Program-made: the position numbers and the translations under genes | Origin: a virus | Taxonomy: Duplodnaviria; Caudoviricetes | IMG/VR virus record: IMGVR_UViG_3300022821_000022 | Coordinates: 1 to 57,892 of that record | Length of the DNA stretch: 57,892 nucleotides | Strand: one strand, 5' to 3' | Notes under the pieces: model-generated | The model's database searches: none | What the model was told of the DNA's origin: nothing | What the model saw: only the letters and a program-made list of their open reading frames with translations | Part shown: piece by piece, positions 5,619-36,538 of the stretch | Position numbering within the stretch: position 1 is the first letter of the stretch | Layout: each line of letters starts with the position of its first letter

Positions 5619-6623
5619 CTATGAGATTGCCGTTGCGGCACACTCAGCACGCGCCATCCACGTTTCGTTCAGCCGTACAGCCGTGAAGTAGTGCAAGGCA
5701 CCTACATAGCCGCGTTGCCCCAAAGGATCAGACTTGTCGCGCTGACTGGTTGGGATCATCACGGGTTCGCAAGCCGCCTTACCCTTCAAGGGCACAACGC
5801 CATAAGCGTCCTTGCCGGTGATAAGGACCGGATACACGTCCGAGGAAGCCCCGGTAGTGGAAACGGTGTCTACGACAGCGTTATAGGTGCCACCAGCATC
5901 AGCCCACGGGTCCAGATCCGCGGAGAGGACGTAGCGCACGTTTTCACATGAGCCCACTTCTTCTTCGCAGAGGGTTTGACGCGATCCGTATTCAGCGACC
6001 GGCGTAAAACTCGGCATTTCAAGCAAATCGTGTTCCATATCAGTATGGGAAATGCCTGCGTAGGCCGCCCAGACGGCGCGTGTCTGGTAGTTCGGGCTCG
6101 CATCCTGGATGCGTGAGATCTTCTTCGCCTTTTGAGCGTTGAGGAACCGTGTGATAGCCCGCTGTTGGGTTTGGTCGATCGGCGTATTGATATCCGTCCG
6201 AGCCGCGCCATTAGCACGGTACACGTTCGTACCCGCTTTCACGACGCCCCAGGTGACGGCTTCAATGGTTTGAGCCATCTGGTCAGCAACCGCCTTGAGG
6301 CAGTCGTTAAACGCAGAGTCTTCAACCAAGTTCGTCACCCAGTCGGTGAATTCTACCAGGACGCCAAACTGCTGCATCGTTGCAGTGACATCTTCGTAGG
6401 TGAACTGTTGGGCGGTCGGTGTGACGCCTTCGGTCAGTGGCGTGGTTGCCGCTGCGAAAGGAACAAGGCGGCGGAAAGTGACGTTATCCGCTTTGTTTGC
6501 AGGAAGTGGTTTGGTCATACCAAACTTGCCGAGCACGACGGTTGCCTGAGCCCAGGCAAGCATTTCGATTTCAGCGTAGGTATTTGTCCGTTGGTCGATT
6601 ACGGCAGTTGTCGTGACAGTCAT
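5619..6623 (-). CDS. Major capsid protein, N4-gp56 family
   Basis: FRR..P....TPLTEGVTP, QFG, YPVLITGKDAYG and DKSDPLGQRGYVG motifs; 334 aa. Confidence 0.92.
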   Translation of the reverse strand: MTVTTTAVIDQRTNTYAEIEMLAWAQATVVLGKFGMTKPLPANKADNVTFRRLVPFAAATTPLTEGVTPTAQQFTYEDVTATMQQFGVLVEFTDWVTNLVEDSAFNDCLKAVADQMAQTIEAVTWGVVKAGTNVYRANGAARTDINTPIDQTQQRAITRFLNAQKAKKISRIQDASPNYQTRAVWAAYAGISHTDMEHDLLEMPSFTPVAEYGSRQTLCEEEVGSCENVRYVLSADLDPWADAGGTYNAVVDTVSTTGASSDVYPVLITGKDAYGVVPLKGKAACEPVMIPTSQRDKSDPLGQRGYVGALHYFTAVRLNETWMARAECAATAIS

Positions 6624-11331: not shown

Positions 11332-12957
11332 CTATGGCACTGGTGCCCTTGGTGGGAATTTGGGTTTTGCTTTGGGGACTTCGTAAGTCACGGGCTCCGC
11401 AAAGGTCAGGGCTATGGCATCCCATTCATCGGGAGACCGTATACCGCGTGCCCGCATATCGTCTTTGGATTCCAGCTTTATGCGCTGGTTCATATCGTAT
11501 TTGTAGTGAGGGCCAACGGCGTCAGACTGCAATGAATCACTGTCTGGTATGTCAGCCCCGCCTACCTGCTCCAACCAATCCCGCGATCGCATCCACATTT
11601 CTGTGCGGCGGTCTTTCGGGCCCGGTCGTTTCTCCATCTTCTTGCCGGTTTCAGACTTGATCCATATATCAGGCTCTTGTGGCGCTCCGCCAAAGTTCAC
11701 AGGGACACAGATTTTCTTATACTTCTCGCCCCAGGAGCACAAAATATCGAAGGTCCCAGCACCCAGGCCGCCCACGTCGATAAAGAATTTAGCGGGCTTA
11801 TGGTGGTCAATCTGCTGTTTGCACCAGTTCGCGCCTTCGACCACATCGAGCTTAATTTTGCTCTCAATGCGGCGGACCTTGCGGCCCTGGCGGTAGGCTA
11901 TACTAAAGCGATCGTTACCGTAGCGAGCGGGATCAGCACCCATAACAAGCGGCCCGAAGCCATCAGCCACGGTCTTGCGGGCCCGAGCAACCAGAGAGGC
12001 CTTAATGTAAGAAAGGTCTGTCGATACGTTGAAGGCCTCGGTCGCGGTCGCGGGGTATTCCTGCTGGAATAGGTTGACATCCTGTAGCGCGACAATTTTA
12101 TTGCGGCGCCATAGCATCTGAGAGAGTTCGAGGTCGTATAGATCTCTGTATTCAATCTCGTCGTCGTCTAGCTCGTAAAGCACACCCTCTTTTGGCTCAA
12201 TCCGGTATTCCGATTGCCAGAACCAGGGGATAAAGATTGGGATATATTCGGAGAGGCCCGCTTCGGCGTCCTGCCACATCAAATGGAACAGGTTGCCCAT
12301 GCCGTTCGCGGTCGATTCCAGGATTACTTCTGTGCCCACGGCGTCAGGTATGGCCTGCATAACCCCAGCGGCGTGCTCGTCGGCATTGGGCCAGAAAGCG
12401 ACCTCGGAACCGTGGAAATACTGAATTGTGCCGGATCGGCCGGCGGCGCGGGTGCCTGCGGTAGAAACACGATATCCACTGTCCAGGGCCGAGAAGTCGA
12501 GTTCCTTGGCGTTCGCCGCACGGGTCGGTGGATGGTCTGGGTCATTCTCCCAATATCGGGTCGTCATTTCAAACAGGTTATCTGTGGCGGCCTGTTCGTG
12601 GGTCAGGATAAAGGTTCTCACGCCCTTGTTGTGGGTGGTCCGCCAATAAAAGCGGCCTTCCACGTAGGTCGAGCACCCTTGTTGTCGCCCCTTCAGGATG
12701 ATCGCCCGAATCTTGCCGGTTTCTTCTAGCTGCTTTTGAAGGAGAAGATGGATATGGAGTTGAACACGGTTTAACCGGAAGGGCTCTAGGGCGCCCTCTC
12801 CTGCGGTGACGTTCTTGGTGCGGATTCTTAGATTGTTGGCAGCGTAACTATTGAAGTTTTCGCTTATCTGTCGCCGTTCGCGCTCCGCTAGGAGTTGCCC
12901 TATCTCGTAATCCTCGTTCGAGAATGGCGTTGTCGATAGCTGCGTCGAGCTCATCAC
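11332..12957 (-). CDS. terL: Terminase large subunit
   Basis: ILKGRQQGCST Walker A, HGSEVAFW Walker B, ESTANG coupling motif, GADPARYGND and SPDEWDAIALTF nuclease motifs. Confidence 0.95.
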   Translation of the reverse strand: MMSSTQLSTTPFSNEDYEIGQLLAERERRQISENFNSYAANNLRIRTKNVTAGEGALEPFRLNRVQLHIHLLLQKQLEETGKIRAIILKGRQQGCSTYVEGRFYWRTTHNKGVRTFILTHEQAATDNLFEMTTRYWENDPDHPPTRAANAKELDFSALDSGYRVSTAGTRAAGRSGTIQYFHGSEVAFWPNADEHAAGVMQAIPDAVGTEVILESTANGMGNLFHLMWQDAEAGLSEYIPIFIPWFWQSEYRIEPKEGVLYELDDDEIEYRDLYDLELSQMLWRRNKIVALQDVNLFQQEYPATATEAFNVSTDLSYIKASLVARARKTVADGFGPLVMGADPARYGNDRFSIAYRQGRKVRRIESKIKLDVVEGANWCKQQIDHHKPAKFFIDVGGLGAGTFDILCSWGEKYKKICVPVNFGGAPQEPDIWIKSETGKKMEKRPGPKDRRTEMWMRSRDWLEQVGGADIPDSDSLQSDAVGPHYKYDMNQRIKLESKDDMRARGIRSPDEWDAIALTFAEPVTYEVPKAKPKFPPRAPVP

Positions 12958-13504
12958 CAGTTAGCTCCCTCAAAAGAGACCCGGCGCCTACTCCCGGTTT
13001 GTCGCCCGCCGCGGGCTGCTGGAACATTTGCAAGTGCTTCCCGATGTCGACCAGGGCACCGCGCTTGTCCGCCAGCTTGAATGTAACGGTTCTCTCCATC
13101 GAGCCCCCGGATTGCCCGGTTTTCTCTATAATCTTCACTTCGCCAATGGCTGCGGCCTGGGCCCGCGTAATAGCTGACATATCCACGCGCAGCATACCGT
13201 CCGCATCTGGCTTCACGTAATCGAGCATGTTCGAGAAGCCCAAACGGCAGAGTTCCTTCATTACGTCGTCTGCTTTGACGCTGCACCGCTCGCTGCGTTT
13301 GTCTATTTCCCGCTGAATAAAGGCCTGGGCCGCGATTGTTTGCACGATCTTCCAGCCGGTTTTCACGTTGATCTTGCAGGCCTGGGCGGCCCGAGAGATC
13401 GACAGATCCACCATGTATTCCTCTAAGAAACGGCGGTGTGTAACCGTAAGACCGTCCTTGTCTTTTCTTTGAGGCTTCGCTTTTGGTTTGGGGTCTGTTG
13501 CCAT
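12848..13504 (-). CDS. terS: Terminase small subunit
   Basis: RFLEEYMVDLSISRAA HTH, LGFSNMLDY and KLADKRGALVDIGKHLQMF motifs; upstream of TerL. Confidence 0.9.
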   Translation of the reverse strand: MATDPKPKAKPQRKDKDGLTVTHRRFLEEYMVDLSISRAAQACKINVKTGWKIVQTIAAQAFIQREIDKRSERCSVKADDVMKELCRLGFSNMLDYVKPDADGMLRVDMSAITRAQAAAIGEVKIIEKTGQSGGSMERTVTFKLADKRGALVDIGKHLQMFQQPAAGDKPGVGAGSLLRELTGDELDAAIDNAILERGLRDRATPSGARTATDKRKLQ

Positions 13505-13521
13505 GGGTCAAAAGCATATGC

Positions 13522-14841
13522 TTACCGATTAACAATATCAAGAATCGCAGTCGAAACGGACTCGGCCATGCGGGGCGCGTCCATCATGTATTTGCCAATC
13601 CACACACCAAACGCGGTGCCGTGCGTTATCCGTAGGGATTCGTCCTCATGTAGCTGTAAGGCCAGTCCGCAATAGGCGGCGGTCCCCTCGACCCAGGGCT
13701 GGAGACCATAAAAGACCTCGCGGGCGCCATCCTCCCAGGTTGCCTGAACGAGGGCCGAGGCGCTTTGTTCCTCTGCGGTTTTCTCGTCATGCAGCCAAAC
13801 AACAGGTTTGTACGCTGCCATCGCCTCATAGGCGCAATGTCCGGACTGAAACGGGAAGGTGTCGAGATACACGTCGATCACCTGGGCCCAGAGCCGGGTA
13901 TTGACCCAGCCAAGGAAGGACGTGCGTTTATCTACGCCATGTTCTGCGAACTTGCGCCACACGGTATCCTCGCGCCCGGTGTAGACAAATATGGAATCCG
14001 GGCAGTCTTTCAGGATGGTAGCGACGGCCTCAATATACTGGTCTGACATTTTCTCTGCCCGCCCCATCCAACCGAATATGGTTTGAACCCCTATGCCTTC
14101 CCTGATTTCAAGGGCCCGCTCTGTTTGGCTTTCGTCAAGCAATTCAGGCAAAGCGGTGTAGGTACATTTCCACGTCCGGCCCGCGATTTCCTTGGTCTCG
14201 TCGAACGGGTGGCAGGCGTCCAGGTAGCCGTCTATGGCACCGACACTCAGGCCATGCCACTTATGCGCCCACCAGATATGTTTCGGAGCCACGCCTAAAG
14301 CGGTGGCGAAGGCCATCGACTGCACGACGGAAACGAACACCATAGCGTCGAGGCCGTCCCTAATGCTTATATCCCGAAGCTCTAGCCATGAGTCGAGCAG
14401 GTTCTCGTTGAGGATATGCTTGACCGTGTGGCGCTGAAAAGCCTCGTCGAATTCGGGGTTACGGTCGCCAAAGGTGTAGACGATCGGCAGAATACTGCGG
14501 TTGCCCACTTCGCTGCCCACTTCGCTGCCCAATTGGGCAAGCGCATCCAGGAAGGTAAGCAGATTGACGCTATGGGCCAGGAGCGTAGCGGTCGGCATGA
14601 AGAACCCGATAGCGGGCGGCAGCACACCATCGGCATAAAGACCGCCATATCGCCACGGATTCTCGGGCCCCTTTGGCATTAAATCGCGCCGCATACGGTT
14701 CCCCGCCTCGATCAGCGGGTACTTCATCACACCATGATAGGCCTCGAAGGCTTCCGCGCTGTCCGTGGGGCTCTTAGCCATTCCCGACGTAGCCGCTTCC
14801 ATAGCGAGGGCGTCGAGGGCAAAGCCGTAGGCGTCTTTCAC
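13522..14841 (-). CDS. GT-B glycosyltransferase, GT41 (OGT/HMW1C)-like C-terminal catalytic lobe
   Basis: FGWMGRAEKM and IDVYLDTFPFQSGHCAYEAMAAYKPVV resemble the DxxLDTFP...EAxxxGxPVV signature; no TPRs visible. Confidence 0.7.
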   Translation of the reverse strand: MKDAYGFALDALAMEAATSGMAKSPTDSAEAFEAYHGVMKYPLIEAGNRMRRDLMPKGPENPWRYGGLYADGVLPPAIGFFMPTATLLAHSVNLLTFLDALAQLGSEVGSEVGNRSILPIVYTFGDRNPEFDEAFQRHTVKHILNENLLDSWLELRDISIRDGLDAMVFVSVVQSMAFATALGVAPKHIWWAHKWHGLSVGAIDGYLDACHPFDETKEIAGRTWKCTYTALPELLDESQTERALEIREGIGVQTIFGWMGRAEKMSDQYIEAVATILKDCPDSIFVYTGREDTVWRKFAEHGVDKRTSFLGWVNTRLWAQVIDVYLDTFPFQSGHCAYEAMAAYKPVVWLHDEKTAEEQSASALVQATWEDGAREVFYGLQPWVEGTAAYCGLALQLHEDESLRITHGTAFGVWIGKYMMDAPRMAESVSTAILDIVNR

Positions 14842-15797
14842 GTTGTCGGGTCCGCCTCAATCCGGCGTGTGGCCCATTGGCCGACATTCTGCCTGTACCA
14901 ATCGACGGTCTCACGCAGCCCACCAAGCCATGTGGTTTCTGGTTTCCAGTTGAGATCTCGTAGGGCTCTGGTGTTGTCGCACCAATGCTTATGGACCTGT
15001 CCCGGCCGATCCCCGATATTTGCCGGGAATAGGGAGCTTTCCATAATCTTAGACACACACTCAGCGACGTTGTTCACGGAGACAGCGTTGCCGGTGCCTA
15101 GATTGTATACCCGTTCCCGCGTGTGCTCGGTCATAACGGCGTTAATGCCCTCAACCAGATCATCGACGTAGATGTAATCCCGAATAGCCTCGCCGTCGCC
15201 GTGGACTGTCATAGCCTCGCCGCTGATATCCTGGGTGATAAACCGAGGAATCAGCTTCTCCGGGTGCTGGCGAGGGCCGAAGCAGTTGAACGGCCGCACA
15301 ATCTTGGCCTTGATTCCGTAGGTCTCGATATACGAGTAAACCGTGCGATCGGCGCCACACTTCGCAGCGGCGTAGGGGCTCATTGGGTTCAAGGGGTGGT
15401 GCTCATTCATCGGTCTGGTCACGTCCCAATCGGTGCCGTAGACCTCAGACGTGGAGATATGGATTAGCTGGACCTCGGGATTGCGGCGCACGGCCTCGCA
15501 TACGGTCTGTGTGCCGATCACGTCGGTCTCGAAGAACAGGCGGCTATTCACGATAGACCGGGCCACATGGGTTTCAGCGGCGAAGTGGACCACCATATTG
15601 ACCTTGTGAACCAGATCATTGACCAGCATCACATCGCAGACGTTTCCGTAGATGAAGGTCGCCCGAGGGTCGAGGTTGTCCTGTAGTCCCGCGTAGGTCA
15701 GGCAATCCAGGACCAGGACCTCATGCCCAAGGTCGCACATCAGATTGACGAAGTGGGAGCCGATAAACCCGGCGCCCCCGGTGACTAGAATTCTCAT
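14838..15797 (-). CDS. rmlB: dTDP-glucose 4,6-dehydratase
   Basis: VTGGAGFIG, LTYAG, HFAAETHV, STSEVYG, YAAAK, FGPRQHPEKLIP and DRPG motifs. Confidence 0.92.
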   Translation of the reverse strand: MRILVTGGAGFIGSHFVNLMCDLGHEVLVLDCLTYAGLQDNLDPRATFIYGNVCDVMLVNDLVHKVNMVVHFAAETHVARSIVNSRLFFETDVIGTQTVCEAVRRNPEVQLIHISTSEVYGTDWDVTRPMNEHHPLNPMSPYAAAKCGADRTVYSYIETYGIKAKIVRPFNCFGPRQHPEKLIPRFITQDISGEAMTVHGDGEAIRDYIYVDDLVEGINAVMTEHTRERVYNLGTGNAVSVNNVAECVSKIMESSLFPANIGDRPGQVHKHWCDNTRALRDLNWKPETTWLGGLRETVDWYRQNVGQWATRRIEADPTT

Positions 15798-15823
15798 ACT
15801 TATGGGACCTATTCGTTAATGGG

Positions 15824-16513
15824 TTATTGTGCGGTGAACCTAAACAGGCTGGCCGGGACCAGAAGCCCCAGCGTGGAACGGTCTGCCACCCCAAAGGGGC
15901 GCAATAGATCGGGGTCTGGCGGCATGATCTGGACAAGGTTAGGGCCTATCAGGCTTGCCATATTGGTTACACCCTTCTCGATACCCTCAACGTCGTCGAA
16001 GGCGTAGATGGTGTCGGAGCCCGAAAGATCGGCAATTAAATCGACATCTTGGGCCTGTAGCCGCCCGTCGAAAAAGAAAAGGTCTATTTGTTTATGGCCG
16101 TGCAGCTTCACGCGCTCGAACATGACCGGGGACATTGTTTTCGGGTAGGTAATAACGGTTGGGCCTGAATGGCGGTTTAGGTCCTTTTCGCTCAAGCAAG
16201 CATTGTTGCCGTCGCATGTATGGATTGTACCAGCCTGGACCATCCCCGAAGCCATGGCGAAGGTGGACTTTCCGATATAGGTCCCAATCTCACAAACCGC
16301 AGTAGGTTTGATATATGAGGTTAAAAGATGGAGCCATATTGCTGTCGATAGGGGGATAGACCCTGTTTTCTCAGCCATAAAGTCCTCGGCAGCTTCGGCA
16401 GTCCGGCTGTAGCCCACCATCCCATCGTGAACCTTGGCGACACGAAACGCGCTCAACCGAAGCAGCCGCTCCCAGAACAGCTTGGACAGGTCGTATGTTG
16501 CGATATCAAACAC
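15824..16513 (-). CDS. Class I SAM-dependent (O-)methyltransferase, Methyltransf_24-like
   Basis: CEIGTYIGKST motif I, IDLFFFDG and FDD motifs. Confidence 0.8.
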   Translation of the reverse strand: MFDIATYDLSKLFWERLLRLSAFRVAKVHDGMVGYSRTAEAAEDFMAEKTGSIPLSTAIWLHLLTSYIKPTAVCEIGTYIGKSTFAMASGMVQAGTIHTCDGNNACLSEKDLNRHSGPTVITYPKTMSPVMFERVKLHGHKQIDLFFFDGRLQAQDVDLIADLSGSDTIYAFDDVEGIEKGVTNMASLIGPNLVQIMPPDPDLLRPFGVADRSTLGLLVPASLFRFTAQ

Positions 16514-17561
16514 CCAGCATCTCCCTCAGAGTTATGACCTTGATATCTCCCGGTATCTTGGCCTTGATTTCCTTCTCGTATGTCAGAGACATAATCAGCA
16601 TCACGTCGATAGGATCGGGGCGACGGAGAATGTCAGCCGCGCTCTCGATCATAATATCCACGCCATCAAGCCACTTGCCCGCCATACCGTCGTCGAATAG
16701 CCGGTAGCGTTTCAGGAAGTCTTGATCCCGGCAGTACGGCAGGAATCTCATGGGGCAGTAGATCCCGACGCGCTGGCCCGCTGCGTCGAGAGACATAAGC
16801 AGGTTTCCGACGTGGGCATAGTTCCGCGTAGCCTTGTTGATAAACGCGCCGAATGTTTCATGTGAAACAGGACTAAAATCTATTACCCGCGTTGTTGGCT
16901 CACCGACCACATACAGCTTTCCTCTAACATCGTGGAGGCTTATCGGGTCCAGGCCAGCGGCGGCGAAGGTTCTTCGGATTGAGTGTGTAGTGAAGTAGCT
17001 TAGGTGCTGTCCCTGGGCCATTGATATATCACCGAACGCGACCTCGGCGGTGCAGTCGGGCACGACAATGAAGATTTTGCCTGACTTCCTCAAAAGAGGG
17101 ACGCATGATTTAAGAAACGCTACCGGGTCCTCAACGTGCTCAAGAACATGGTTAGCGATTACTTGATCGAAGTGCTTGTCTGGTGGCTGGCGGTGCCGTT
17201 CCTCTGCTGGGACAGGCCATTTCCCAACCCAGGCCGTGTGCTCGGCACCATGCTTTTCAATGTGATCCCCTAACCATCCCGTACCAGGACCAATCTCAAA
17301 CACCTTCAACTTTTCTGCTGGCGTGTACCTATTCTTGAGGAACTTGTCGTAGTTATCAGTCGCGCCCAGGTTCTCGGACCCGTGCTCATAAACCTTGTCC
17401 AGGGCGTTCATAAGCTCGGGATAGATATGCTGGCGAACGAGCCTGATATCGTTGTCGTAATCCCATGTGAAGTCTGCCCGCGCCGGTATTGCCGGGTCAG
17501 GTGTTGGAATTGAGGGGTCCGCGTTGAGGCGCCAGTTAAACGGCAGCTTGGGGATAATCAT
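16506..17561 (-). CDS. SAM-dependent methyltransferase, sugar C-methyltransferase-like
   Basis: FEIGPGTG, FDQVIANHVLEHVEDP and QHLSYFT motifs, then a Rossmann-like tail; start at ATG 17561 (ATGA overlap). Confidence 0.75.
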   Translation of the reverse strand: MIIPKLPFNWRLNADPSIPTPDPAIPARADFTWDYDNDIRLVRQHIYPELMNALDKVYEHGSENLGATDNYDKFLKNRYTPAEKLKVFEIGPGTGWLGDHIEKHGAEHTAWVGKWPVPAEERHRQPPDKHFDQVIANHVLEHVEDPVAFLKSCVPLLRKSGKIFIVVPDCTAEVAFGDISMAQGQHLSYFTTHSIRRTFAAAGLDPISLHDVRGKLYVVGEPTTRVIDFSPVSHETFGAFINKATRNYAHVGNLLMSLDAAGQRVGIYCPMRFLPYCRDQDFLKRYRLFDDGMAGKWLDGVDIMIESAADILRRPDPIDVMLIMSLTYEKEIKAKIPGDIKVITLREMLGV

Positions 17562-18631
17562 GCTGCAAGGACCTCGTTTGACTTGGATATGACGTAACCG
17601 ACCGCAGATTCGTCCAATCCGGCCCAAATCGGGAGGCTAACCGCGTGTTTTGCGGCCTCCTCTGCGCCTGGGTAATCCGCCGGATCGAGGGTGTACACCT
17701 CCCTGAACTGGGCATGGTGGTGCAACGGGCGGTAATGACGGCCACATTCGACCCCATGCGCGGCCATAGCGGCGATATAGCTCTTGGCGTCTGGAACGTG
17801 GACGATAAACAGGTGGTGCGAGTGCCCCTTTTCACGCTCGGGCAGGAGGCAGCCACGCAATCCATGGCGGTATAACTGGGCTACTATGGCGCGTTCACGC
17901 CTCATGCGCTCGGCTCGGCCTAGCTGTACGAGACCTAACGCGGCCTGAATGTCCGTCATGTAGTAGCGGAAGCCTTCGTGAAGAACCTGGTGCTCCCTGT
18001 CCCCAATAAGGCGGGCCTTGCTGTCCGTATCGAATCCGTTCGATCTCATGCGCCGTATTCGCTTTGCTGTCTTTGGTGACTGGGTGACGTACATCCCGCC
18101 ACCGCCCGCCGTGATTGGTTTGGTCGCGTTGAAGCTGAACACCGCGTCGGCGTCCGCGCCTGGGTCGTATGGCAGGCAATGGGCGGCGTCCTGAATTATG
18201 GGCCTTCGGTTGCCCCACGGCTCCTTGGTCATAGAGCCCGCCATATGAACCGGCATATAGGCGCCGCAGTGGTTCTGCTTTTCGTGAACGTCTATCGCCT
18301 TGCCGGTAATCAACAGGGTTAGCGGGTCCACGTCGCAAAACACGGGCATACAGTCAGCAAGCTCGATTGCTCGCAGGGTGGCGGCGTAGGTCCAGACAGG
18401 GACAGCAACCTCGTTGTCCGGGTGAATTACGCTCGCCAGCAGCCCCATATGGAGCCCGGCGGTGCAGCTTGAGACCGCGACAGCTATGCAGCCATCACCG
18501 CACGCATTGGCGAAAGCCTCCTCGAACTCCTCGACCTTTGGGCCCTGGGTGATCCAGCCAGACCGCAGGACAGCCGCGACAGCCTCAACCTCGCCCTCGC
18601 CTATGCTCGGGTGGTGGAGCTTAATCTCCAT
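17558..18631 (-). CDS. DegT/DnrJ/EryC1/StrS family PLP sugar aminotransferase
   Basis: SGWITQGPKVEEFE, VSSCTAGLH, PVHMAG, QDAAH, FSFNATKPIT (catalytic Lys) and VSLPI motifs. Confidence 0.93.
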   Translation of the reverse strand: MEIKLHHPSIGEGEVEAVAAVLRSGWITQGPKVEEFEEAFANACGDGCIAVAVSSCTAGLHMGLLASVIHPDNEVAVPVWTYAATLRAIELADCMPVFCDVDPLTLLITGKAIDVHEKQNHCGAYMPVHMAGSMTKEPWGNRRPIIQDAAHCLPYDPGADADAVFSFNATKPITAGGGGMYVTQSPKTAKRIRRMRSNGFDTDSKARLIGDREHQVLHEGFRYYMTDIQAALGLVQLGRAERMRRERAIVAQLYRHGLRGCLLPEREKGHSHHLFIVHVPDAKSYIAAMAAHGVECGRHYRPLHHHAQFREVYTLDPADYPGAEEAAKHAVSLPIWAGLDESAVGYVISKSNEVLAA

Positions 18632-18830
18632 TGCGGAAAATCCCGACTAGCGGCGTGTATTTGAAGAGCAACTTGCGAGGCCACTCCCGGCCATAAACGA
18701 AGGCCAGGAACACAGCGGCCAAACAGGCAGCGATTAAGACGATTGCCAGGATCAAACTTGTCCCGACAGCGGCAGCGGCTAGGTAATTCGCCGCGAGGAA
18801 GAACGTGATAGCCCTACACAGATGGTCCAT
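18621..18830 (-). CDS. Small membrane protein
   Basis: 69 aa with a long hydrophobic stretch; overlaps both neighbours. Confidence 0.55.
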   Translation of the reverse strand: MDHLCRAITFFLAANYLAAAAVGTSLILAIVLIAACLAAVFLAFVYGREWPRKLLFKYTPLVGIFRNGD

Positions 18831-19939
18831 TAGTTAAGCCATTCATAGATATGGCGGAAGATTTCGGGCTGATAGAACAGGCCTTGCTCGGCGCCCGATC
18901 CGAGAAGCGTTACCGGCGTGAGGGCGTTGAGGGCCAGCCGTACCCGGCCTAGCGCCTTCTCGTTCGCTATCGTTGGCACGGGCAGAATAGGCCCGAGGTC
19001 GTGGGTGCCCAGTCTTTGTAGGCCATCGGGCATTAAATCCATCCCCGGCGGGTCTATGTACTCGTAGCTGATCCGCCGGTCGTTGGGGTCGCCCGTGAAA
19101 TTGCAGTACCAAGTGACTCGAAAACGACTCGTATTCGTGTAATCGAAGGCGTAGTGCAGGTCGTGATCCGGGGCGTCACCCAGGCAATTCACCACGGTCA
19201 CGCGCAGCGGCTCATGCTCAAGGTCAGGCCATGGGATACCATAGGTCCTCGCGGCACCACGTAGCCCAGCGGTCCAGATAACGTAGGCATTAGAAGGCAG
19301 GATACCGTCCGTATCGAAGTCGAAGGCCACGCCCATGCTCTTGAGCTTAACCACGGCGGCGTCAGCCAGGGCGACCATGCCATCCTTGGGGTAGAAGCTC
19401 GTCTGCTCTGATCGGTACTTCTCAGGCAAGGTGCGTTGATCCGGCCATGCGAGGAGGCCAGGGGCCTTGTCTGGCTCAAACTCGTAAGCCTCCAGGGTCC
19501 ATATCTCATCCATTATCACGCACCGATCGACTTTGATTAGCTTGTCCGCGTGGTCGGCAAGGATATCTGCATCGTCCACGTCCCAGAGAGATTTAAGAAT
19601 ATCAGGCTGGGCGATACCCGGAGGCGGGTTCGCGATGGGTCTCAGGTCCGGGTAGGGCGAATTGGTCTGTAGGTGGTCGCCAAACCAGCACCCAGCTATC
19701 TCACGGGGAATCGGATGATGGTCCACCGGCAGGTCGCGCCAAAAGCGGTCTATCTCGTCTATGCCGCACTCCGTATACCAGTGCATCCCGGCCTCGAAGT
19801 GGTGCGCTTGTTCGGTCGTACCTCGCCACAAGCCACCAGGGCCGCTCGCCTTTTCCATCACAGTCACATCATGGCCGCGAATTGCCAGCAGATAGGCAGC
19901 GGTTAGGCCAGCGGGCCCAGCGCCTACGACGTACTTCAT
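18830..19939 (-). CDS. FAD/NAD(P)-binding oxidoreductase (protoporphyrinogen oxidase / UDP-galactopyranose mutase-like fold)
   Basis: VVGAGPAGLTAA dinucleotide motif, EK...PGG, FEAGMHW, FYPKDGM. Confidence 0.8.
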   Translation of the reverse strand: MKYVVGAGPAGLTAAYLLAIRGHDVTVMEKASGPGGLWRGTTEQAHHFEAGMHWYTECGIDEIDRFWRDLPVDHHPIPREIAGCWFGDHLQTNSPYPDLRPIANPPPGIAQPDILKSLWDVDDADILADHADKLIKVDRCVIMDEIWTLEAYEFEPDKAPGLLAWPDQRTLPEKYRSEQTSFYPKDGMVALADAAVVKLKSMGVAFDFDTDGILPSNAYVIWTAGLRGAARTYGIPWPDLEHEPLRVTVVNCLGDAPDHDLHYAFDYTNTSRFRVTWYCNFTGDPNDRRISYEYIDPPGMDLMPDGLQRLGTHDLGPILPVPTIANEKALGRVRLALNALTPVTLLGSGAEQGLFYQPEIFRHIYEWLN

Positions 19940-20367
19940 GTGCCTTTGCCCCGAATCTCACTCGCAATCGACTCTAAGACAGACGCTATATTCGCCATAT
20001 GTGTCTTTGAATAGGCACATTCAGAAACGAGAGTACGGAAGGAAAACTCACGACCAAACGCTTTGTCCTCATCCCCGGCATCTTCCGCGCAAAGATTCCA
20101 ATCAAGGCTATCAACGACAAAAGTTATATCGCCATCTGTCCAGGGGTTAATCGCAGCATGTATATCCCCGACAAAATCGAGGACGGCAGCTTTGGCTATT
20201 TCATCCGTGGCAGCTTGGTACACAGCCTTGGCACCATCAAAGTCGAAGTGAAGGTGCTCAATCATGGCATTACCCAGCTTGGCCGGGTCGAGTTTGAGGG
20301 CATCAATAACCGCGCCTTCTATCGTCTCGGCACTATCCCAGTATTTAATCTCCATTTCGGCGCTCAT
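19936..20367 (-). CDS. Hypothetical acidic protein, tandem paralog 1
   Basis: MSAEMEIKYWDS...LKLDPAKLG...IASEIRGKG. Confidence 0.75.
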   Translation of the reverse strand: MSAEMEIKYWDSAETIEGAVIDALKLDPAKLGNAMIEHLHFDFDGAKAVYQAATDEIAKAAVLDFVGDIHAAINPWTDGDITFVVDSLDWNLCAEDAGDEDKAFGREFSFRTLVSECAYSKTHMANIASVLESIASEIRGKGT

Positions 20368-20810
20368 GGGCCTTTGCCCCGAAGCTCACTCGCAATCAAT
20401 TCCAAGGTGGAGGCCATAACCTCGGCGTGATTGTCCCTGGTATCCCCTTCCTCAAGGTCCAGGTTGCCCAGGCACTCCGTAATCACGGCGCGAAGGGACC
20501 AATGGCGATCAAACGTGGTGCCGTCGTCGCCAGCCGATTCCGCGTTGATCTTCCAATCAATGTTATCGACCAAGAACACTATATCGCCGTCTACCCAGCG
20601 ATTAACCTCGAAGCAGAGAGACTTAGCGAAGTCCACAACGGCCCCTTTCGCTATCTCGTCCGAGACTGCCTGAAAAGCAACCTGGGAATCGTCGTCGTCC
20701 AGACTAAGGTTGTCAATGATAATGCGGCCTAGTTTCGCCGGGTCTAGCTTGAGAGAGCCAATAACGGCATCCTCAATCTGATTGACACTATCCCAGTATT
20801 TAATCTCCAT
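20364..20810 (-). CDS. Hypothetical acidic protein, tandem paralog 2
   Basis: MEIKYWDS...LKLDPAKLG...IASELRGKG; aligns end to end with paralog 1. Confidence 0.75.
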   Translation of the reverse strand: MEIKYWDSVNQIEDAVIGSLKLDPAKLGRIIIDNLSLDDDDSQVAFQAVSDEIAKGAVVDFAKSLCFEVNRWVDGDIVFLVDNIDWKINAESAGDDGTTFDRHWSLRAVITECLGNLDLEEGDTRDNHAEVMASTLELIASELRGKGP

Positions 20811-20824
20811 TATTTAATCTCCAT
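20797..20824. repeat. Perfect 14-bp tandem duplication TATTTAATCTCCAT
   Basis: Copies at 20797-20810 and 20811-20824. Confidence 0.95.
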
Positions 20825-20913
20825 TTCGGCGCTCATTCGCCTTTTTCGCCTTATCAGCGAGGGCTTCAATGTATGGCAGCTTATGGAAAGGTAGTGACGC
20901 GCTGCAAAAATCA

Positions 20914-21528
20914 CTACGGGGCTTCTTCTCTCAGAATGTGGATACAGAACTCAAACGGCAGATAGCCAGCTTCGAGCGTCCACCGCTTAGACAGGGTTGA
21001 GGCCATTATCGCCGCCTGCCACGGGCTTATATGAAAGTCGGTAGGGCCCTTACGGTCGGCGCTCTCGTCCAGGAAGTCGATATGAAGCCCGATTCTGGTG
21101 CTTTCCCAGAGGAGGCGCATGGTCTCGGCTATGTGGTCCATGTGTTTGGGGCGGTCACGCTTGCCCATACGGGTAAACACGCCACACGCCACAACATGAT
21201 CCCAGGATACGCCAAACTGAGGCAGGTCCTCAACGGTCCCGACCTCGAACTTGTGCTTTGGGTATGCTTGGCGGGCATTGCCGATGAACCCGGCAAAAGG
21301 ATCAACGCCTAGATAGTTGTTAGATCTCACGACCTTTGCGAGGCCACCGAGGCCGCAGCCGAGGTCCAGGACAGTAGCGTGTTGAATGGAGCCGCCGGTT
21401 AGCTGGAGATACCGAGTGAGGCACTTCTCCTCCTTGGTCCAGCCGAGGGCCTTATTCGTAGCGCCGCATTGATTTAGCGCAGTCCGGTAGCTGGCGATAA
21501 CCGCAGGATCGGGGGCGAGTTCACTCAT
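20914..21528 (-). CDS. Class I SAM-dependent methyltransferase
   Basis: ALGW, VLDLGCGLG, YLGVD, WDHVVACGVF and YLPFEF motifs, recalled from methyltransferases in glycan clusters. Confidence 0.85.
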   Translation of the reverse strand: MSELAPDPAVIASYRTALNQCGATNKALGWTKEEKCLTRYLQLTGGSIQHATVLDLGCGLGGLAKVVRSNNYLGVDPFAGFIGNARQAYPKHKFEVGTVEDLPQFGVSWDHVVACGVFTRMGKRDRPKHMDHIAETMRLLWESTRIGLHIDFLDESADRKGPTDFHISPWQAAIMASTLSKRWTLEAGYLPFEFCIHILREEAP

Positions 21529-22237
21529 ATGGCAGAGGTCCCCATCCCGGTCCGGTCTCGATTAGGAAATCCAAGGCAGACAGATAGGGAATGAATGGCT
21601 CGCGGTGCTGTGGATACACCGGATGGTTTTCTGAGAAGTCCGACCATTCAATAGTTACTCCCGCCCGAGAGAATTGAATTTCTGAAACATATTGTCGTGC
21701 TGTTGGGCCTGATATGAAAACGTCGGCCCCTAGCCGCTGACATATTGCCAAGGGTCGGTAGGTTCTGTCCAGGTCTTTCGAGATTTCCATACCAGATACG
21801 CGCAGGGTCGGGGTTGTAATCCCTAGATGGTGTGCCATCCATTCGATAACCGCGATATTGAGGTCAGCCAGAAACTCGTGGTCCTCTGCTATCAGGTCCC
21901 GGAACTCCTCGACGTATTGCTCGACGTGCGGCGCGTTCCGATACCAGTTGCCCAGCTTCTCCGGGATATTTACCTGCCATAGGTCGCCGTGCGTCGTCAG
22001 CGGTAGCTCGTTCAGCATCAGGAATCCATCGCCCTTCTTGCCGCCACCATGCCGCGTGGGCACCGATAGCCAAGTCGATTGGTTCTTGGGGTCTCTCATA
22101 TGGTTCCGGTTGGCGTATCCCTTCCGGCTGAACTGCACGTCGTCATAGAACACGAACAGGTCTGCCCGGCGCATCATATCGAAGTAGCCCAGCCAGGGCA
22201 TAAAGTTGGGTTGGATCACAGCAACGGATACGGTCAT
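21521..22237 (-). CDS. wbqC: WbqC-family protein (putative glycyl transferase)
   Basis: IQPNFMPWLGYF, ADLFVFYDDVQF, NRN, WLSVP, YPQ and PYLSALDFL motifs. Confidence 0.92.
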   Translation of the reverse strand: MTVSVAVIQPNFMPWLGYFDMMRRADLFVFYDDVQFSRKGYANRNHMRDPKNQSTWLSVPTRHGGGKKGDGFLMLNELPLTTHGDLWQVNIPEKLGNWYRNAPHVEQYVEEFRDLIAEDHEFLADLNIAVIEWMAHHLGITTPTLRVSGMEISKDLDRTYRPLAICQRLGADVFISGPTARQYVSEIQFSRAGVTIEWSDFSENHPVYPQHREPFIPYLSALDFLIETGPGWGPLPYE

Positions 22238-22485
22238 GGGTAAAGCCTTCCATAGAAGCCCGATTGATAGAAGCCCGATTGATAGAAGTTCGATAGAGGG
22301 ACACGGGTCTGGCCCTGCCGGATTGAGGTCCCATAAAGGGCCATATCGCCTATCTCGCTCTGTATCCGATCCACGCTTGCGGCCAATATTCGCTGAAACG
22401 CGGCCTCTAGCTCTGGCGGGAGGTCAGGCCCTTCTTTGATGAATAGCTGGGTGTAGACGTACTCCACCTTGATCTCCTCTGTCAT
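22234..22485 (-). CDS. Hypothetical protein with 15-bp tandem repeat (FYQSG)
   Basis: ATAGAAGCCCGATTG at 22252 and 22267 plus a degenerate third copy at 22282. Confidence 0.5.
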   Translation of the reverse strand: MTEEIKVEYVYTQLFIKEGPDLPPELEAAFQRILAASVDRIQSEIGDMALYGTSIRQGQTRVPLSNFYQSGFYQSGFYGRLYP

Positions 22486-22603
22486 AGCGCCACCCCAAAG
22501 GGAAACCCGGCCACGCTTAAACATGGTCGGGCGTCGAGGGTTTGCGGCACCGTAAAATGCCTATGGCAATGGAGATCACCGCAGTCATTATAGGCCATGG
22601 TGC

Positions 22604-23104
22604 TCATTCGTCTAGCTCCGCGTCCACCATATCCAGGATGGTCTTTAGGACAGGCGGGACCTTGCTTTGCCATATCCGGCTGATTGCAGCGTCGAGCCGT
22701 TCATGTTCTCGGTGGTAGGCCCGCATCCTCACGCCATACGCCACTTGCCGGTAGGCGTCAGAGACAGACCGCAACGGCAATAAGTGAGTCTGCCGCACAG
22801 CATTACCAAAGGAATCGCCGTTGTTCGGGTGCTCCATCGCGTTCATTTGCTTGTTGATGGCCTGAACCGCAGCCTGCTTCTCGTCGTAGTGTGGTTCGGG
22901 CTCGTCAATGCCGCGCGCCTGCACTGCGTAAGTTTCTGGCAGCTTAAAGCTAACGGTCTTCGCATTACCCAGGAATTCCCTGTCCACCAAGCCCCGCATG
23001 GCGAGGGATTTAGCGTCCAGTTGCATCGACCCAACGGCAACGGCCCCGGCAGCACCGGCACCCAGGCGCAGCAGGTTCCGGCGTGATTTAGCTGTATTGT
23101 CCAT
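22604..23104 (-). CDS. Hypothetical protein with twin-arginine-like signal peptide
   Basis: KSRRNLLRLGAGAAGAVAVG N-terminus. Confidence 0.6.
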   Translation of the reverse strand: MDNTAKSRRNLLRLGAGAAGAVAVGSMQLDAKSLAMRGLVDREFLGNAKTVSFKLPETYAVQARGIDEPEPHYDEKQAAVQAINKQMNAMEHPNNGDSFGNAVRQTHLLPLRSVSDAYRQVAYGVRMRAYHREHERLDAAISRIWQSKVPPVLKTILDMVDAELDE

Positions 23105-23882
23105 TGCGCTCCCCTATGAAAGTCCGCCCCAGGTCCGTTAACTCAAGGCAGCCGTCGCCGTTCTTCTTCGCCAGTTTGGCGATATACATAGTTTGACGCG
23201 CCTTCTTAGCCGCATCCTCTGATATGCCCCACACTTCCGGGCAGACACCAGCGGGCATCATATGAGGGCCAAACGCTGACGAATGGGCGTGGATAGCCTT
23301 GAGGTGTGGGATTAGCGGTGTGTTGTCGTAGATCTTAGCTTCGGGCCCTGGTGGCATGGTGACCTCCGTTTGTGGCAATGGGTAGGTAGGTTGGTGTAGC
23401 TGGTGCATCTGAACACCTTGATAGGTTTGGCTGCCCAGCTTGATCGGGCCCGCCTCCTCGAAGAATCGCCGACTGGAGATAAACCCATAGACGCGGGCGC
23501 TATTAGGCCCTTCGGAGCCCATCTGCATAAGAATTTCAGCCTTGAGAGGGCTATGTTCTGCGATATAGGCGAACCGTGGATTGGATTTGAGAGCAGTCTT
23601 AACCTGTACGGTCCACCCCTTCCCCGGCCAGATTAGATCAACACCACCATCAAGCTCGCCCTCGGTTAGGACATCAGATACGGGATAGCCGAAATACTTG
23701 AGAGCACAGGCCTCCCCGACGATTCCACCGCGCTGTCGGATCGGCCAGGGCTTATGCAAGTCGCCTTCGTGCTGTTGAAAGCGGCCAAGATTGTCGAAGC
23801 CAGCCTCACGTGTCGCAAGCTCCCGATCAACAATGGCTATCTCAGCGGCGTCCAGGTGGAGGATTAAGGTTCGGTCAGTCAT
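23088..23882 (-). CDS. Putative PD-(D/E)XK-like nuclease fused to a wHTH-like C-terminal domain
   Basis: GIVGE...DGGVD...TVQVKT motif; C-terminal LELTDLGR wing; internal GGAGG-N5-ATG at 23357. Confidence 0.45.
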   Translation of the reverse strand: MTDRTLILHLDAAEIAIVDRELATREAGFDNLGRFQQHEGDLHKPWPIRQRGGIVGEACALKYFGYPVSDVLTEGELDGGVDLIWPGKGWTVQVKTALKSNPRFAYIAEHSPLKAEILMQMGSEGPNSARVYGFISSRRFFEEAGPIKLGSQTYQGVQMHQLHQPTYPLPQTEVTMPPGPEAKIYDNTPLIPHLKAIHAHSSAFGPHMMPAGVCPEVWGISEDAAKKARQTMYIAKLAKKNGDGCLELTDLGRTFIGERNGQYS

Positions 23883-32898: not shown

Positions 32899-33012
32899 AT
32901 GCCCCAAACCCGCCGGTTTTTGGATCTCTCTAGCGGGACCGTAGAGCGTGGGTCGCCACGTCGGGGCATACGAGGGGAACAAAAAGGTGGCGTCTACGGG
33001 CCGCCGCTGTTC
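32899..33012 (+). ncRNA. Candidate structured RNA (three-way junction plus hairpin with pseudoknot)
   Basis: Several perfect stems and a 7-bp loop-junction complementarity; see findings. Confidence 0.4.
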
Positions 33013-33028
33013 TAATGGGAATATCAAA

Positions 33029-33280
33029 ATGAAAACGAACTTGAAAATACCATGCTCGCCTTTACAGGTGAAATTGTTGCGATTTATCAAGGCTTACACG
33101 GCCAAACACCGCTATGCGCCTTCGGTTCAAGAAATGGCTGACGGTTGCGGCTGGAAAAGCAAATCAGCGCCAGCGCGAATCCTCAACCAGCTTGTAGATC
33201 TGAAGCTCATTACGCGATCATCAGGCCGTATGCGTACCGTCGCGCTGACCAAGGCCGGGGAAGCAGGGGGTAAGCCATGA
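33029..33280 (+). CDS. LexA-type DNA-binding domain-only protein
   Basis: SPLQVKLLRFI...APSVQEMADGCGWKSKS...LNQL..LKLITR....RTV; no peptidase domain. Confidence 0.8.
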   Translation: MKTNLKIPCSPLQVKLLRFIKAYTAKHRYAPSVQEMADGCGWKSKSAPARILNQLVDLKLITRSSGRMRTVALTKAGEAGGKP

Positions 33281-33789
33281 GTGATTTAGACGCGCTGCGG
33301 GAAGATTTTAATGTTGCACACTCAACGGGCGTGGAGATTGGCAAATCTGCGGTAGCCGTTATACGTGATCTACAGGCAGACAACGAGCGGCTGCGGGAGG
33401 AGCGGGATGAACTTGCTCACCAGTTGAAGGTTGCGATGGGCGAGACATCCTTGCGGGATGAAAGCATTAAAACTCTGGTGTTGTTTTTTGCCGAAGATGC
33501 AGAGCGGCAAGAGTTTGTCGAGTTGGTCAAGGAGGCAAAGCCGGGGATGATTGAGCGCACCATACCGAGCTATCCGACTAAATCAGACGCAACACTAAAT
33601 TCAATGATTTTGGGCCTTCACGCGATGTTGTTTGGCGAGTCGTCACAACAAGACCCAGACCACGCCCTAGCGTCCATATCAGACGGCGGCGAGATACACG
33701 AGTTTGTTCATGAAATGGTCAGGCTGTTACCTGATACCCAACATCCTGGCTCCGCCGACGTAAAAGAAAGGACCAACTGGCGATATTAA
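33277..33789 (+). CDS. Hypothetical protein, possibly chimeric
   Basis: 170 aa, coiled-coil N-terminal half; ATGA overlap. Confidence 0.6.
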   Translation: MSDLDALREDFNVAHSTGVEIGKSAVAVIRDLQADNERLREERDELAHQLKVAMGETSLRDESIKTLVLFFAEDAERQEFVELVKEAKPGMIERTIPSYPTKSDATLNSMILGLHAMLFGESSQQDPDHALASISDGGEIHEFVHEMVRLLPDTQHPGSADVKERTNWRY

Positions 33790-33841
33790 GACCCCTTAGC
33801 ACCTTGGGGGAATCAAGGTGTACGAAATGGAGTTAAAACCC

Positions 33842-33982
33842 ATGAGTGATTTAAAAGAAAAAATTGAAACACTGGCAAAAAGATCAGCCGAGGCAGACAA
33901 ACCCGGTGATGCAATGCACCTTGCACAAGCGGCGCTAAGTTTGGCGCAAGCGTACGGGTCTCTTGAAGCTGTAAAGAAGTAA
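33842..33982 (+). CDS. Small protein (46 aa, absent from the ORF track)
   Basis: MSDLKEKIETLAKRSAEADKPGDAMHLAQAALSLAQAYGSLEAVKK; GGAG RBS; flanked by hairpins. Confidence 0.6.
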   Translation: MSDLKEKIETLAKRSAEADKPGDAMHLAQAALSLAQAYGSLEAVKK

Positions 33983-33991
33983 ACACTACCT

Positions 33992-34020
33992 CCCCGGCCT
34001 TAGCAGGTCGGGGTTACTTT
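33992..34020 (+). terminator. Terminator-like hairpin
   Basis: CCCCGGCCT-TAGC-AGGTCGGGG followed by TTACTTT. Confidence 0.5.
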
Positions 34021-34038
34021 AACTTGAGGCCATAGGGA

Positions 34039-36169: not shown

Positions 36170-36176
36170 TTTTATT

Positions 36177-36517: not shown

Positions 36518-36538
36518 AATTCACCGGTCTGTCAAACG

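Follow-up and report, generated by a model that had tools for sequence, protein, structure and literature searches.

What is a run of amino-sugar genes doing directly in front of the packaging genes of a tailed phage, and which molecule receives the sugar that these genes would make? The question is raised by the DNA analysed here (hereafter the window), which comprises the entire linear IMG/VR virus record IMGVR_UViG_3300022821_000022 (57,892 bp; CheckV completeness 100%). Between positions 13522 and 22237, on the minus strand, the window encodes a set of putative enzymes for the synthesis, tailoring and transfer of an amino sugar. A first-pass annotation of the locus had interpreted it as a phage pathway for dTDP-viosamine, with virion proteins or host surface proteins as the targets. 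Our analysis upholds the more general part of that interpretation, i.e. an amino-sugar tailoring and transfer system owned by the phage, for which a protein acceptor is favoured, and finds the dTDP-viosamine chemistry over-specific. We tentatively propose that the run may well be a phage-resident protein-glycosylation cassette, built around a four-gene core that also occurs in glycosylation islands of bacteria, some of them adjacent to flagellin genes. This core encodes a short-chain dehydrogenase/reductase (SDR) of the Thr-Ser-Glu (TSE) type, a DegT C4-aminotransferase, a WbqC protein and a GT41-like transferase.

Every cassette gene named in the first-pass annotation was confirmed on the minus strand within 13522-22237, with strong Pfam/NCBIfam support for most of them. 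In the direction of transcription, the run opens with a gene for a WbqC-family protein of 238 aa (21521-22237; PF08889, E 1.4e-57) and one for a class I S-adenosylmethionine (SAM) methyltransferase of 204 aa (20914-21528; Methyltransf_25/12/11, E 3e-9 to 1e-7). These are followed by two acidic open reading frames (ORFs), of 148 aa (20364-20810), the first of a tandem pair, which matches no known family, and 143 aa (19936-20367), the latter being a paralogue of the former (49% identity). Next comes a gene for a flavin adenine dinucleotide (FAD)-binding oxidoreductase of 369 aa, which belongs to the amine-oxidase/protoporphyrinogen-oxidase-like superfamily (18830-19939; NAD_binding_8, E 5.5e-15). 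A doubtful hydrophobic ORF of 69 aa (18621-18830) bridges the gene of this enzyme and that of a DegT-family sugar C4-aminotransferase dependent on pyridoxal phosphate (PLP) (357 aa; 17558-18631; PF01041, E 7.9e-71). The remaining genes encode a Methyltransf_23 methyltransferase of 351 aa, counted from the ATG at 17561 (16506-17561; E 4.4e-18), a Methyltransf_24/family-3 O-methyltransferase-like protein of 229 aa (15824-16513; PF13578, E 6.6e-7), an RmlB-like extended SDR of the TSE subfamily (319 aa; 14838-15797; PF16363/PF01370, TIGR01181 E 1.1e-89) and, in the last position, a GT-B glycosyltransferase of 439 aa that is GT41-like and carries no tetratricopeptide repeats (TPR) (13522-14841; recognised by a Glyco_trans_1_4 match of 26.1 bits and an AlphaFold model). 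The earlier gene list was thus correct in what it named and incomplete, since the two tandem paralogous ORFs and the doubtful 69-aa ORF had been overlooked.

The translational coupling predicted for the run is evident from eight junctions at which neighbouring genes overlap, by 8, 4, 4, 1, 11, 4, 8 and 4 nt. The 1-nt and 11-nt overlaps are those of the 69-aa ORF with the FAD gene and the DegT gene, respectively. At 17561-17558, an ATGA junction couples the DegT stop codon with the Methyltransf_23 gene, and because of this overlap the latter gene probably starts at the ATG at 17561, and not at the upstream TTG at 17627 where the open frame begins; its counterpart in a related phage contig (L163, described below) retains an identical 4-nt overlap with DegT. 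The transferase gene ends 17 nt before terS (12848-13504, minus strand), so that the cassette is indeed placed directly upstream of this gene, which encodes the small terminase subunit (218 aa; PF03592 Terminase_2, E 2.7e-16) and is the first of the packaging genes. The run, previously placed in the late arm, is situated at the junction of two modules, all on one strand, with the replication module, including a DNA methyltransferase gene, on one flank and the packaging genes on the other. Neither promoter-like sites (8 observed versus 11.5 expected) nor terminator-like sites (14 versus 15.9) are enriched around the cassette, and its G+C content (0.55-0.59) resembles that of the remaining genome.

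The first-pass annotation had considered that the cluster could be a recent, near-identical copy of a host locus. This was not borne out, since the core genes are syntenic, at 35-56% identity, in a divergent phage. A search for the same cassette beside the terminase of another phage was successful: the closest related phage contig (L084/L163; 31.9 kb) contains the eight core genes in identical order, immediately upstream of the terminase. The order in this contig is WbqC, methyltransferase, FAD protein, DegT, methyltransferase, methyltransferase, SDR, glycosyltransferase, terL, portal and major capsid protein, and the respective identities amount to 53, 35, 45, 49, 38, 53, 56, 51, 57, 65 and 79%. 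L163 lacks the two acidic ORFs as well as the 69-aa ORF, and its FAD and DegT genes abut. Partial copies of the cassette were found in L166 and L169, and the pairing of the glycosyltransferase with terL in L164/L168. Among 80 loci with portal relatives, only one (L084) carries the cassette; the others, with about 31-44% portal identity, are devoid of it. Scans of IMG/VR returned a single locus for WbqC and two for the transferase, whether a single sequence or an alignment was used as the query, and megablast of the region 13000-23000 against 50,697 GenBank phage records gave no match. A word-indexed search of 5.8 billion proteins yielded 26 relatives of the transferase; those that are 37-92% identical to it sit on contigs of at most 94 kb, and no bacterial transferase exceeds 36% identity. 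As far as these comparisons go, the cassette is not a recent host copy.

Sampled sequence words of the cassette region were found in 24 sequencing runs labelled as salt lake metagenome, with at least half of the words present in 16 of them; none of the 24 is recorded as an RNA run. In each of four runs, dated 2017-2019, contigs cover all 30 depth bins across 12500-23500, and none of the contig joints removes a cassette gene. Larger variants were confined to three sites. A 96-bp skip inside the transferase gene (14604-14701) was seen in a single contig, one side of which is only 30 letters long, and a 59-bp intergenic stretch (20811-20871) is replaced in one run. A natural presence/absence polymorphism is located just upstream of the cassette, where a 545-bp stretch (22515-23061) is deleted in two of the four runs (X11 and X15), with 15 other letters at the join. 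The deletion removes most of an ORF of 166 aa with a twin-arginine-like signal and a weak UCR_Fe-S_N match (E 0.0042). The same two runs show compensating single-base indels within about 25 nt of the Methyltransf_24 gene (15933-15956), which recode a few residues locally and keep the overall frame.

The enzyme on which the identity of the acceptor chiefly depends is the transferase. In Pfam, Glyco_trans_1_4 alone matches it at E <= 0.01, with 26.1 bits that narrowly miss the cut-off of 27, and no solved chain matches it by sequence at E <= 1. The AlphaFold 2 model (mean predicted local distance difference test, pLDDT, of 89.9) has a GT-B fold preceded by only two N-terminal helices. In a Foldseek search, ranks 1-23 were all occupied by GT41 enzymes, including SPINDLY (E 1.4e-15), the OGTs of Xanthomonas and Thermobaculum, human and fly OGT, and HMW1C/NGT. 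VIA-align likewise placed GT41 enzymes in the top 10 positions (Z 28.6-24.9 over 372-390 residues, starting from model residue 10-14), followed by the GT4 enzymes HepE, TarM, BshA and PimA (Z 24.8-23 over 311-325 residues, starting from about residue 75). The GT41 matches thus take in the helices that precede the first Rossmann lobe. We describe the protein as GT41-like and not as a member of GT41, because its structural margin over GT4 is modest and the Pfam GT41 model does not match it at E <= 0.01.

An alignment-based scan of metagenome and genome contigs for the transferase yielded 130 loci; 126 of them had a tblastn match, and these fell into 111 distinct groups. Those bacterial homologues that were scanned are long proteins (570-820 aa), in which the tblastn match starts at a median query residue of 76. 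TPR repeats were detected in L182, L249, P0024 and P0025, and in three of the scanned proteins they are N-terminal. The short phage forms lack the N-terminal TPR-bearing extension. In a quick maximum-likelihood tree of 34 rows, four of which are long-branched, a branch with SH-aLRT 99 separates all 16 short forms, together with three long forms and the phage locus L176, from the bacterial long forms; the members of the phage side with a reported contig size are on contigs of at most 94 kb. In two other phage contigs the neighbours of the transferase homologue are of a different kind: in L167 a homologue of 717 aa has a collagen-repeat protein before it and a GT61 enzyme after it (L167 11182-12060), and in L176 the homologue follows a formyltransferase gene and is also adjoined by a TnpB/Cas12f-like gene (L176 12493-14067).

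The bacterial neighbourhoods of the transferase are informative with respect to both sugar and acceptor. Among the bacterial-type loci, 67 distinct ones were 10 kb or longer; 42 of these contain a sugar gene of the set in the flank (WbqC in 19, DegT in 36, SDR in 12), and none contains the FAD protein. In L213, a flagellin gene of 1,148 aa lies directly upstream of the transferase homologue, and the order continues with a ferredoxin, two radical-SAM/SPASM proteins, an asparagine synthase, WbqC, SDR, DegT and two methyltransferases. In L209, genes for FlgK, FlgE, RmlB and RmlA are near the transferase homologue, and in L234 (a Rhodospirillaceae genome) PseB-like, DegT, NeuB and cytidylyltransferase genes stand beside those of the SDR, transferase, WbqC and a GNAT protein. 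FlmG is described as a flagellin transferase composed of TPR and GT-B domains; it binds flagellins through the TPR domain, and its GT domain has no activity in vivo by itself (PMC7591256). Enterobacterial flagellin glycosylation islands commonly hold GT41 enzymes (PMC4875605). We propose, on the basis of the model, that the phage transferase may be a protein O-glycosyltransferase. The GT41-type fold, the TPR-fused bacterial relatives and the neighbourhoods with sugar and flagellin genes favour a protein acceptor over polysaccharide export or DNA.

The WbqC protein matches its Pfam family with 195.5 bits (cut-off 21.3) over profile positions 1-213 of 218. This is a large family (9,478 cluster representatives at E <= 1e-3), and we know of no activity for any of its members; a literature search for 'WbqC' returned nothing on function by title or abstract. 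The AlphaFold 2 model, built from 82 sequences (pLDDT 93.9), found its best structural match in a wide VIA-align search in BshC (4wbd; Z 14.5, root mean square deviation 3.1 A, 218 of the 238 residues), with further matches to class I lysyl-tRNA synthetase (Z 11.7), glutamyl-tRNA synthetase (about Z 8) and MshC (Z 6.9). Comparison with the PDB by sequence gave a best E of 1.4, and Foldseek matches were weak (best E 6.5e-3). BshC and MshC are ligases that join cysteine to an amino sugar through its amine. The closest fold of the WbqC model is therefore found in enzymes that add an amino acid to an amino-sugar amine, with the difference that BshC is 13% identical and much longer (540 versus 238 aa), WbqC lacking its extra domains. 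Eight longer WbqC relatives were scanned, of which four are fused to GNAT, one (P0198) to Methyltransf_23 and one to an SDR of the NDP-sugar (nucleoside diphosphate sugar) epimerase/dehydratase type, and one is a tandem WbqC; GNAT genes also adjoin WbqC in L234 and L250. The model suggests that WbqC is an ATP-dependent ligase placing an amino acid or another carboxylate on the 4-amine of the sugar. The simplest reading would be that the new amine is then acetylated in bacteria and methylated or oxidised in the phage. O121-type antigens contain N-acetylglycyl viosamine, with which such a ligase agrees. The N-acylation claimed in the first-pass annotation is consistent with the BshC-like fold and the GNAT fusions, the chemical step itself being a prediction from these.

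The donor pathway had been described as RmlB plus a VioA-type DegT enzyme making dTDP-viosamine. This assignment was not established, because the SDR motifs are non-canonical, its TIGR01181 score falls below the cut-off (300.7 bits versus 365.1) and DegT is nearest to ArnB. The cofactor motif GxxGxxG (GGAGFIG) and the YxxxK motif (YAAAK) of the SDR are intact and align with those of solved RmlBs, and the YAAAK region is of the RmlB type, unlike the YDEGK of a match of the xylose-synthase type. In place of the motifs STDEVYG and ESHVDRS of solved RmlBs (2hun and 1r66 for STDEVYG), the phage enzyme has STSEVYG and ETHVARS. The Asp of the Thr-Asp-Glu triad serves as the acid for loss of the C6 hydroxyl in RmlB. 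A Thr-Ser-Glu triad occurs in GDP-mannose 4,6-dehydratase and in UDP-glucuronate decarboxylases (ArnA, UXS). The TSE motifs, STSEVYG and ETHV(A/T)RS, were present in all 10 phage-type and WbqC-linked loci in which an SDR homologue was found, and the canonical RmlB motifs in exactly the three loci with an RmlA match. Because the Asp-to-Ser state is kept in 10 of 10 related loci, we regard it as a mark of a subfamily and not of decay. Judging by these motifs, the enzyme could still be a 4,6-dehydratase or could catalyse a different reaction after C4 oxidation. Its solved relatives include the Mimivirus-type dehydratase 6vlo.

The aminotransferase matches the DegT family with 239.6 bits (cut-off 19.8), and its best solved relative is ArnB (1mdo, E 3.3e-51; NCBIfam ArnB 210 bits), followed by PseC and then LegC; dTDP-sugar models reach at most 105 bits, and no VioA-named model or chain was among the matches returned. 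The protein retains the DAAH motif and the lysine of SFxxxK (SFNATK versus SFHAIK of ArnB), which we take to be the PLP-binding residue. The SDR and DegT are reminiscent of the ArnA/ArnB and RmlB/VioA pairs, in each of which an extended SDR is followed by a C4 aminotransferase. The phage pair fits neither of them cleanly, since DegT is nearest to ArnB and the SDR nearest to RmlB overall, with a TSE triad and yet an RmlB-type YAAAK region. On these assignments, the product is described here only as an NDP-4-amino-4(,6-di)deoxy sugar. The absence of rmlA noted earlier was corroborated by a six-frame search of the phage (no PF00483 match at E <= 1), and tblastn revealed no rmlA beside the WbqC-linked bacterial counterparts of the SDR; in L213, however, a ManC-type NTP_transferase was recognised by Pfam at a distance of about 14 kb from the SDR gene. 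The lack of a nucleotidyltransferase in the phage, and of one detectable by tblastn beside the WbqC-linked counterparts, suggests that the substrate of the SDR is a common host nucleotide sugar.

The remaining cassette proteins are less well characterised. In the FAD protein, only the N-terminal ~70 residues (the dinucleotide-binding part) match known families and structures, even with a profile of 13 sequences, and the best families are amine/amino-acid oxidases, carotene desaturase and protoporphyrinogen oxidase. Its top ESM Atlas cluster is automatically named 'Flagellin modification protein FlmF' (0.98, 195/256 features), which we treat as a lead only; a literature search for 'FlmF' returned only unrelated uses of the string. 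Eleven relatives of this protein were found (38-52% identity), and the contigs that carry them (94,015, 57,545, 30,800 and 24,433) match in size those with transferase homologues and were taken to be the same contigs. The Methyltransf_24 protein has relatives with 36% identity in the bacterial islands L209 and L213. Comparison of the methyltransferases with the PDB gave no informative relatives from which N-, O- or C-methylation could be assigned. The two acidic ORFs matched nothing in Pfam, NCBIfam or PHROG, and ESM Atlas gave no usable match for the 148-aa ORF; by sequence comparison, the tandem pair is a lineage-specific insert in the cassette.

From the gene content, conservation, folds, motif states and genomic associations of the cassette, we infer the chemical steps, nucleotide carrier and acceptor of a pathway that would proceed as follows. 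The SDR would oxidise a host nucleotide sugar at C4, probably with C6 dehydration or other processing, to give an NDP-4-keto sugar, which would be aminated by DegT to an NDP-4-amino-4(,6-di)deoxy sugar. WbqC, with ATP, would ligate an amino acid or another carboxylate to the sugar amine, and the three methyltransferases and the FAD enzyme would tailor the product. Finally, the soluble GT41-like transferase, free of a TPR-bearing extension, would transfer the sugar to Ser/Thr residues of a protein.

One or more virion proteins are the most likely acceptor, because the cassette is located in the lytic operon just before terS, no integrase is present, and the transferase clade is found on phage or phage-size contigs. 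The virion target proposed in the first-pass annotation is therefore strengthened as regards a protein acceptor, its assignment to the virion being a conjecture from genomic context. A candidate is the glycine-rich-domain tail/fibre-like protein encoded at 56118-57179 on the minus strand (PF21722 Gly_rich_2, E 1.7e-6), which contains 15 Ser/Thr residues in a 30-residue window, the highest number in the 20 structural-region ORFs examined; its neighbour of 113 aa is also among the most Ser/Thr-rich of these, and both are regarded as candidates only. A more specific scenario, possible but doubtful, is that a lineage of tailed phages infecting Gram-negative bacteria acquired the core genes of a flagellin-type island, shed the TPR-bearing extension and coats its virions with an N-aminoacyl methylated 4-amino sugar.

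Several observations weigh against the proposal of a cassette for protein glycosylation in the virion. Generic GT4 enzymes, whose acceptors are lipids, sugars or small molecules, come near to GT41 in structural comparison (Z 24.8 versus 28.6), and the Pfam GT41 model fails to match at E <= 0.01. A flagellar gene was found by tblastn within 10 kb in only 8 of the 67 long bacterial loci, and the phage itself encodes no flagellin-like protein (best tblastn E 0.82). The Asp-Glu pair of RmlB is incomplete in the SDR, in which the Asp is missing, and this makes the reaction of the SDR uncertain; the matches of the FAD protein do not point to a particular reaction. The phage encodes a LexA-like repressor and a helix-turn-helix (HTH) protein, and a temperate lifestyle is thus possible. 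There is also a precedent for a single transferase acting on an existing glycan, as the one encoded here could likewise do: VioT of P. syringae transfers modified viosamine to rhamnan and not to protein (PMC3927599).

The strongest alternative, which we nevertheless consider unlikely, is that the cassette glycosylates a host protein such as flagellin or pilin and so alters the cell surface, e.g. by blocking competitor phages that depend on the flagellum or by changing motility. The bacterial relatives of the transferase that adjoin flagellin, hook or pseudaminic-acid genes are in line with this, as are the repressor-like genes of the phage and, as a lead only, the automatic name of the FAD protein cluster. 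Against it, a tyrosine or serine recombinase (integrase) was searched for in the phage and was not found, which also weakens the superinfection exclusion via host proteins that had been suggested earlier, and the genes lie inside a lytic operon in which, as described above, promoter- and terminator-like sites are not enriched. Moreover, the phage transferase has no TPR, the part with which FlmG binds flagellin and without which the GT domain of FlmG is inactive in vivo (PMC7591256).

Still less probable, in our view, is an unconventional serotype conversion, in which the transferase would add the amino sugar to a host glycan (an undecaprenyl-linked O-unit, lipopolysaccharide core, capsule unit or flagellin glycan) and rely on the host Wzx/Wzy. 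The GT4 enzymes that match the model closely (Z up to 24.8) have non-protein acceptors, WbqC was named from O-antigen clusters (Pfam description), and VioT moves modified viosamine onto rhamnan (PMC3927599). The best structural matches and the TPR fusions of some bacterial relatives favour protein substrates, however, and the missing integrase counts against this possibility too. In addition, Pfam scans of the 64 ORFs detected no polyprenyl-phosphate transferase, flippase, polymerase or Gtr protein; the earlier statement that wzx, wzy, gtr and ABC exporter genes are absent was borne out by the same scans, as none of these families, and no membrane flippase, transferase or polymerase of the kind that belongs to serotype-converting modules (GtrABC, Wzy, O-acetylase), was detected.

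It is improbable that the genes are metabolic cargo without a function for the phage, i.e. a bacterial island that was copied and is now neutral or degenerating. The missing canonical catalytic Asp of the SDR and the two lineage-specific ORFs inserted in the run could be taken as signs of this. The Asp-to-Ser state, however, is a mark of the subfamily (10 of 10 related loci), a divergent phage retains all eight core genes, undisrupted and in the same order, at 35-56% identity, the closest bacterial transferase is no more than 36% identical, and the region is covered in four runs spanning 2017-2019.

The least probable explanation, to which we give very little credence, is that the sugar is placed on phage DNA as a base hypermodification against restriction. 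The cassette adjoins a DNA methyltransferase gene and replication genes, and the T4 DNA glucosyltransferases are GT-B enzymes, but the 214-aa DNA methyltransferase has an NPPF motif, which we take to indicate the amino-methyltransferase type and not C5, and no phage DNA polymerase was detected in PHROG/Pfam family scans. DNA glycosylation is unlikely because a six-frame search of the whole phage at E <= 1 revealed no match to thymidylate synthase (PF00303) or to a TET/JBP dioxygenase (PF12851), a homologue of one or the other being needed for the hydroxyl acceptor in the known routes (PMC13326640; bioRxiv 10.1101/2023.12.21.572611).

With the virion protein as the preferred acceptor, the cassette can be compared with several known systems. 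The bacterial flagellin islands (P. syringae viosamine, Caulobacter FlmG, enterobacterial GT41) are alike in having a 4-keto/4-amino sugar pathway, N-acylation, methylation and a soluble GT-B transferase, and the bacterial homologues with a detected TPR share, by description, the TPR plus GT-B architecture of FlmG. The phage differs in that its transferase has no TPR domain and its genome no flagellin-like gene, and the FAD enzyme and three methyltransferases replace the radical-SAM, asparagine-synthase and GNAT genes of the islands. To our knowledge, mycobacteriophages provide the sole established case of virion glycosylation among tailed phages. In those of the Che8 type, phage glycosyltransferases and a methyltransferase reportedly modify capsid and tail proteins, and the glycosylation is reported, in the title of Freeman et al. 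2023, to affect antibody recognition. The two cases are alike in the phage-encoded transferases and methyltransferase and differ in the phylum of the host; the mycobacteriophages with glycosylated virions are also said to rely on host sugar donors, unlike the eight-gene tailoring pathway found here. In Mimivirus and the Megavirinae, the particle is decorated with a 4-amino sugar, methylated or acylated, whose pathway includes a virus-encoded 4,6-dehydratase and aminotransferase (PMC10117803). These are eukaryotic giant viruses with another set of transferases, and the phage SDR is of the TSE subfamily, its sugar being unproven.

If the proposal is true, the presence of the cassette in phages of Gram-negative salt-lake bacteria would extend virion glycosylation beyond mycobacteriophages, and would be the first case among tailed phages in which a GT41-type enzyme glycosylates the virion. 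Donor synthesis and transfer would be self-contained, providing a compact protein-glycosylation toolkit with one soluble transferase and no lipid carrier, and the orphan family WbqC would gain a function as a BshC-like amino-acid:amino-sugar ligase. Two predictions are testable: that WbqC is an ATP-dependent ligase, and that the TSE-type SDR is not an RmlB and has a common nucleotide sugar as its substrate.

The phage origin of the window, as first annotated, is borne out by the completeness of the virus record and by its capsid, portal, terminase and tail genes. Among the head proteins encoded are an SU10-like portal and adaptor and a major capsid protein of the HK97 type (5619-6623; PHROG 1357, E 1.4e-55); other phage genes are those of the terminase, tail proteins, an M15 endolysin, RecT with an exonuclease-like neighbour, and a helicase/primase. 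A search for tRNA genes in the phage found none. The large terminase subunit gene, terL (11332-12957, minus strand), has 172 IMG/VR relatives (45-62% identity), of which 80 loci were kept. None of the 80 carries a relative of any cassette gene, of the portal or of the capsid gene, and because they share neither portal nor capsid, terL appears to be mosaic with respect to the head genes and is uninformative for kinship. Since terS overlaps the annotated terL start by about 110 nt, the true start of terL is probably downstream of 12957. The longest ORF upstream of terL (12954-13541, minus strand) was considered as terS and rejected, as its product is Arg/Gly-rich, out of frame and overlaps the PF03592-matching gene at 12848-13504.

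Three further features of the window are worth recording. A single ORF of 3,715 aa (40487-51634, minus strand) contains ResIII/Helicase_C helicase, MTS methyltransferase and LPD38 domains, with PHROG matches to DarB-like antirestriction proteins; it probably encodes a polyvalent protein that is injected to counter host defences. The first and last ORFs of the record (57520-57837 and 138-860, minus strand), one at either end, share a similar stretch (TTFDID.LAAQ..PS..DTVAIYD.GLS), which suggests that they encode paralogous tail-fibre proteins with a common domain and that the tail block spans the record ends. Finally, positions 33000-37000 form an island of low G+C content (0.45-0.50 versus about 0.55), which contains divergent small genes, an HTH regulator and a truncated Clp-protease-like ORF.

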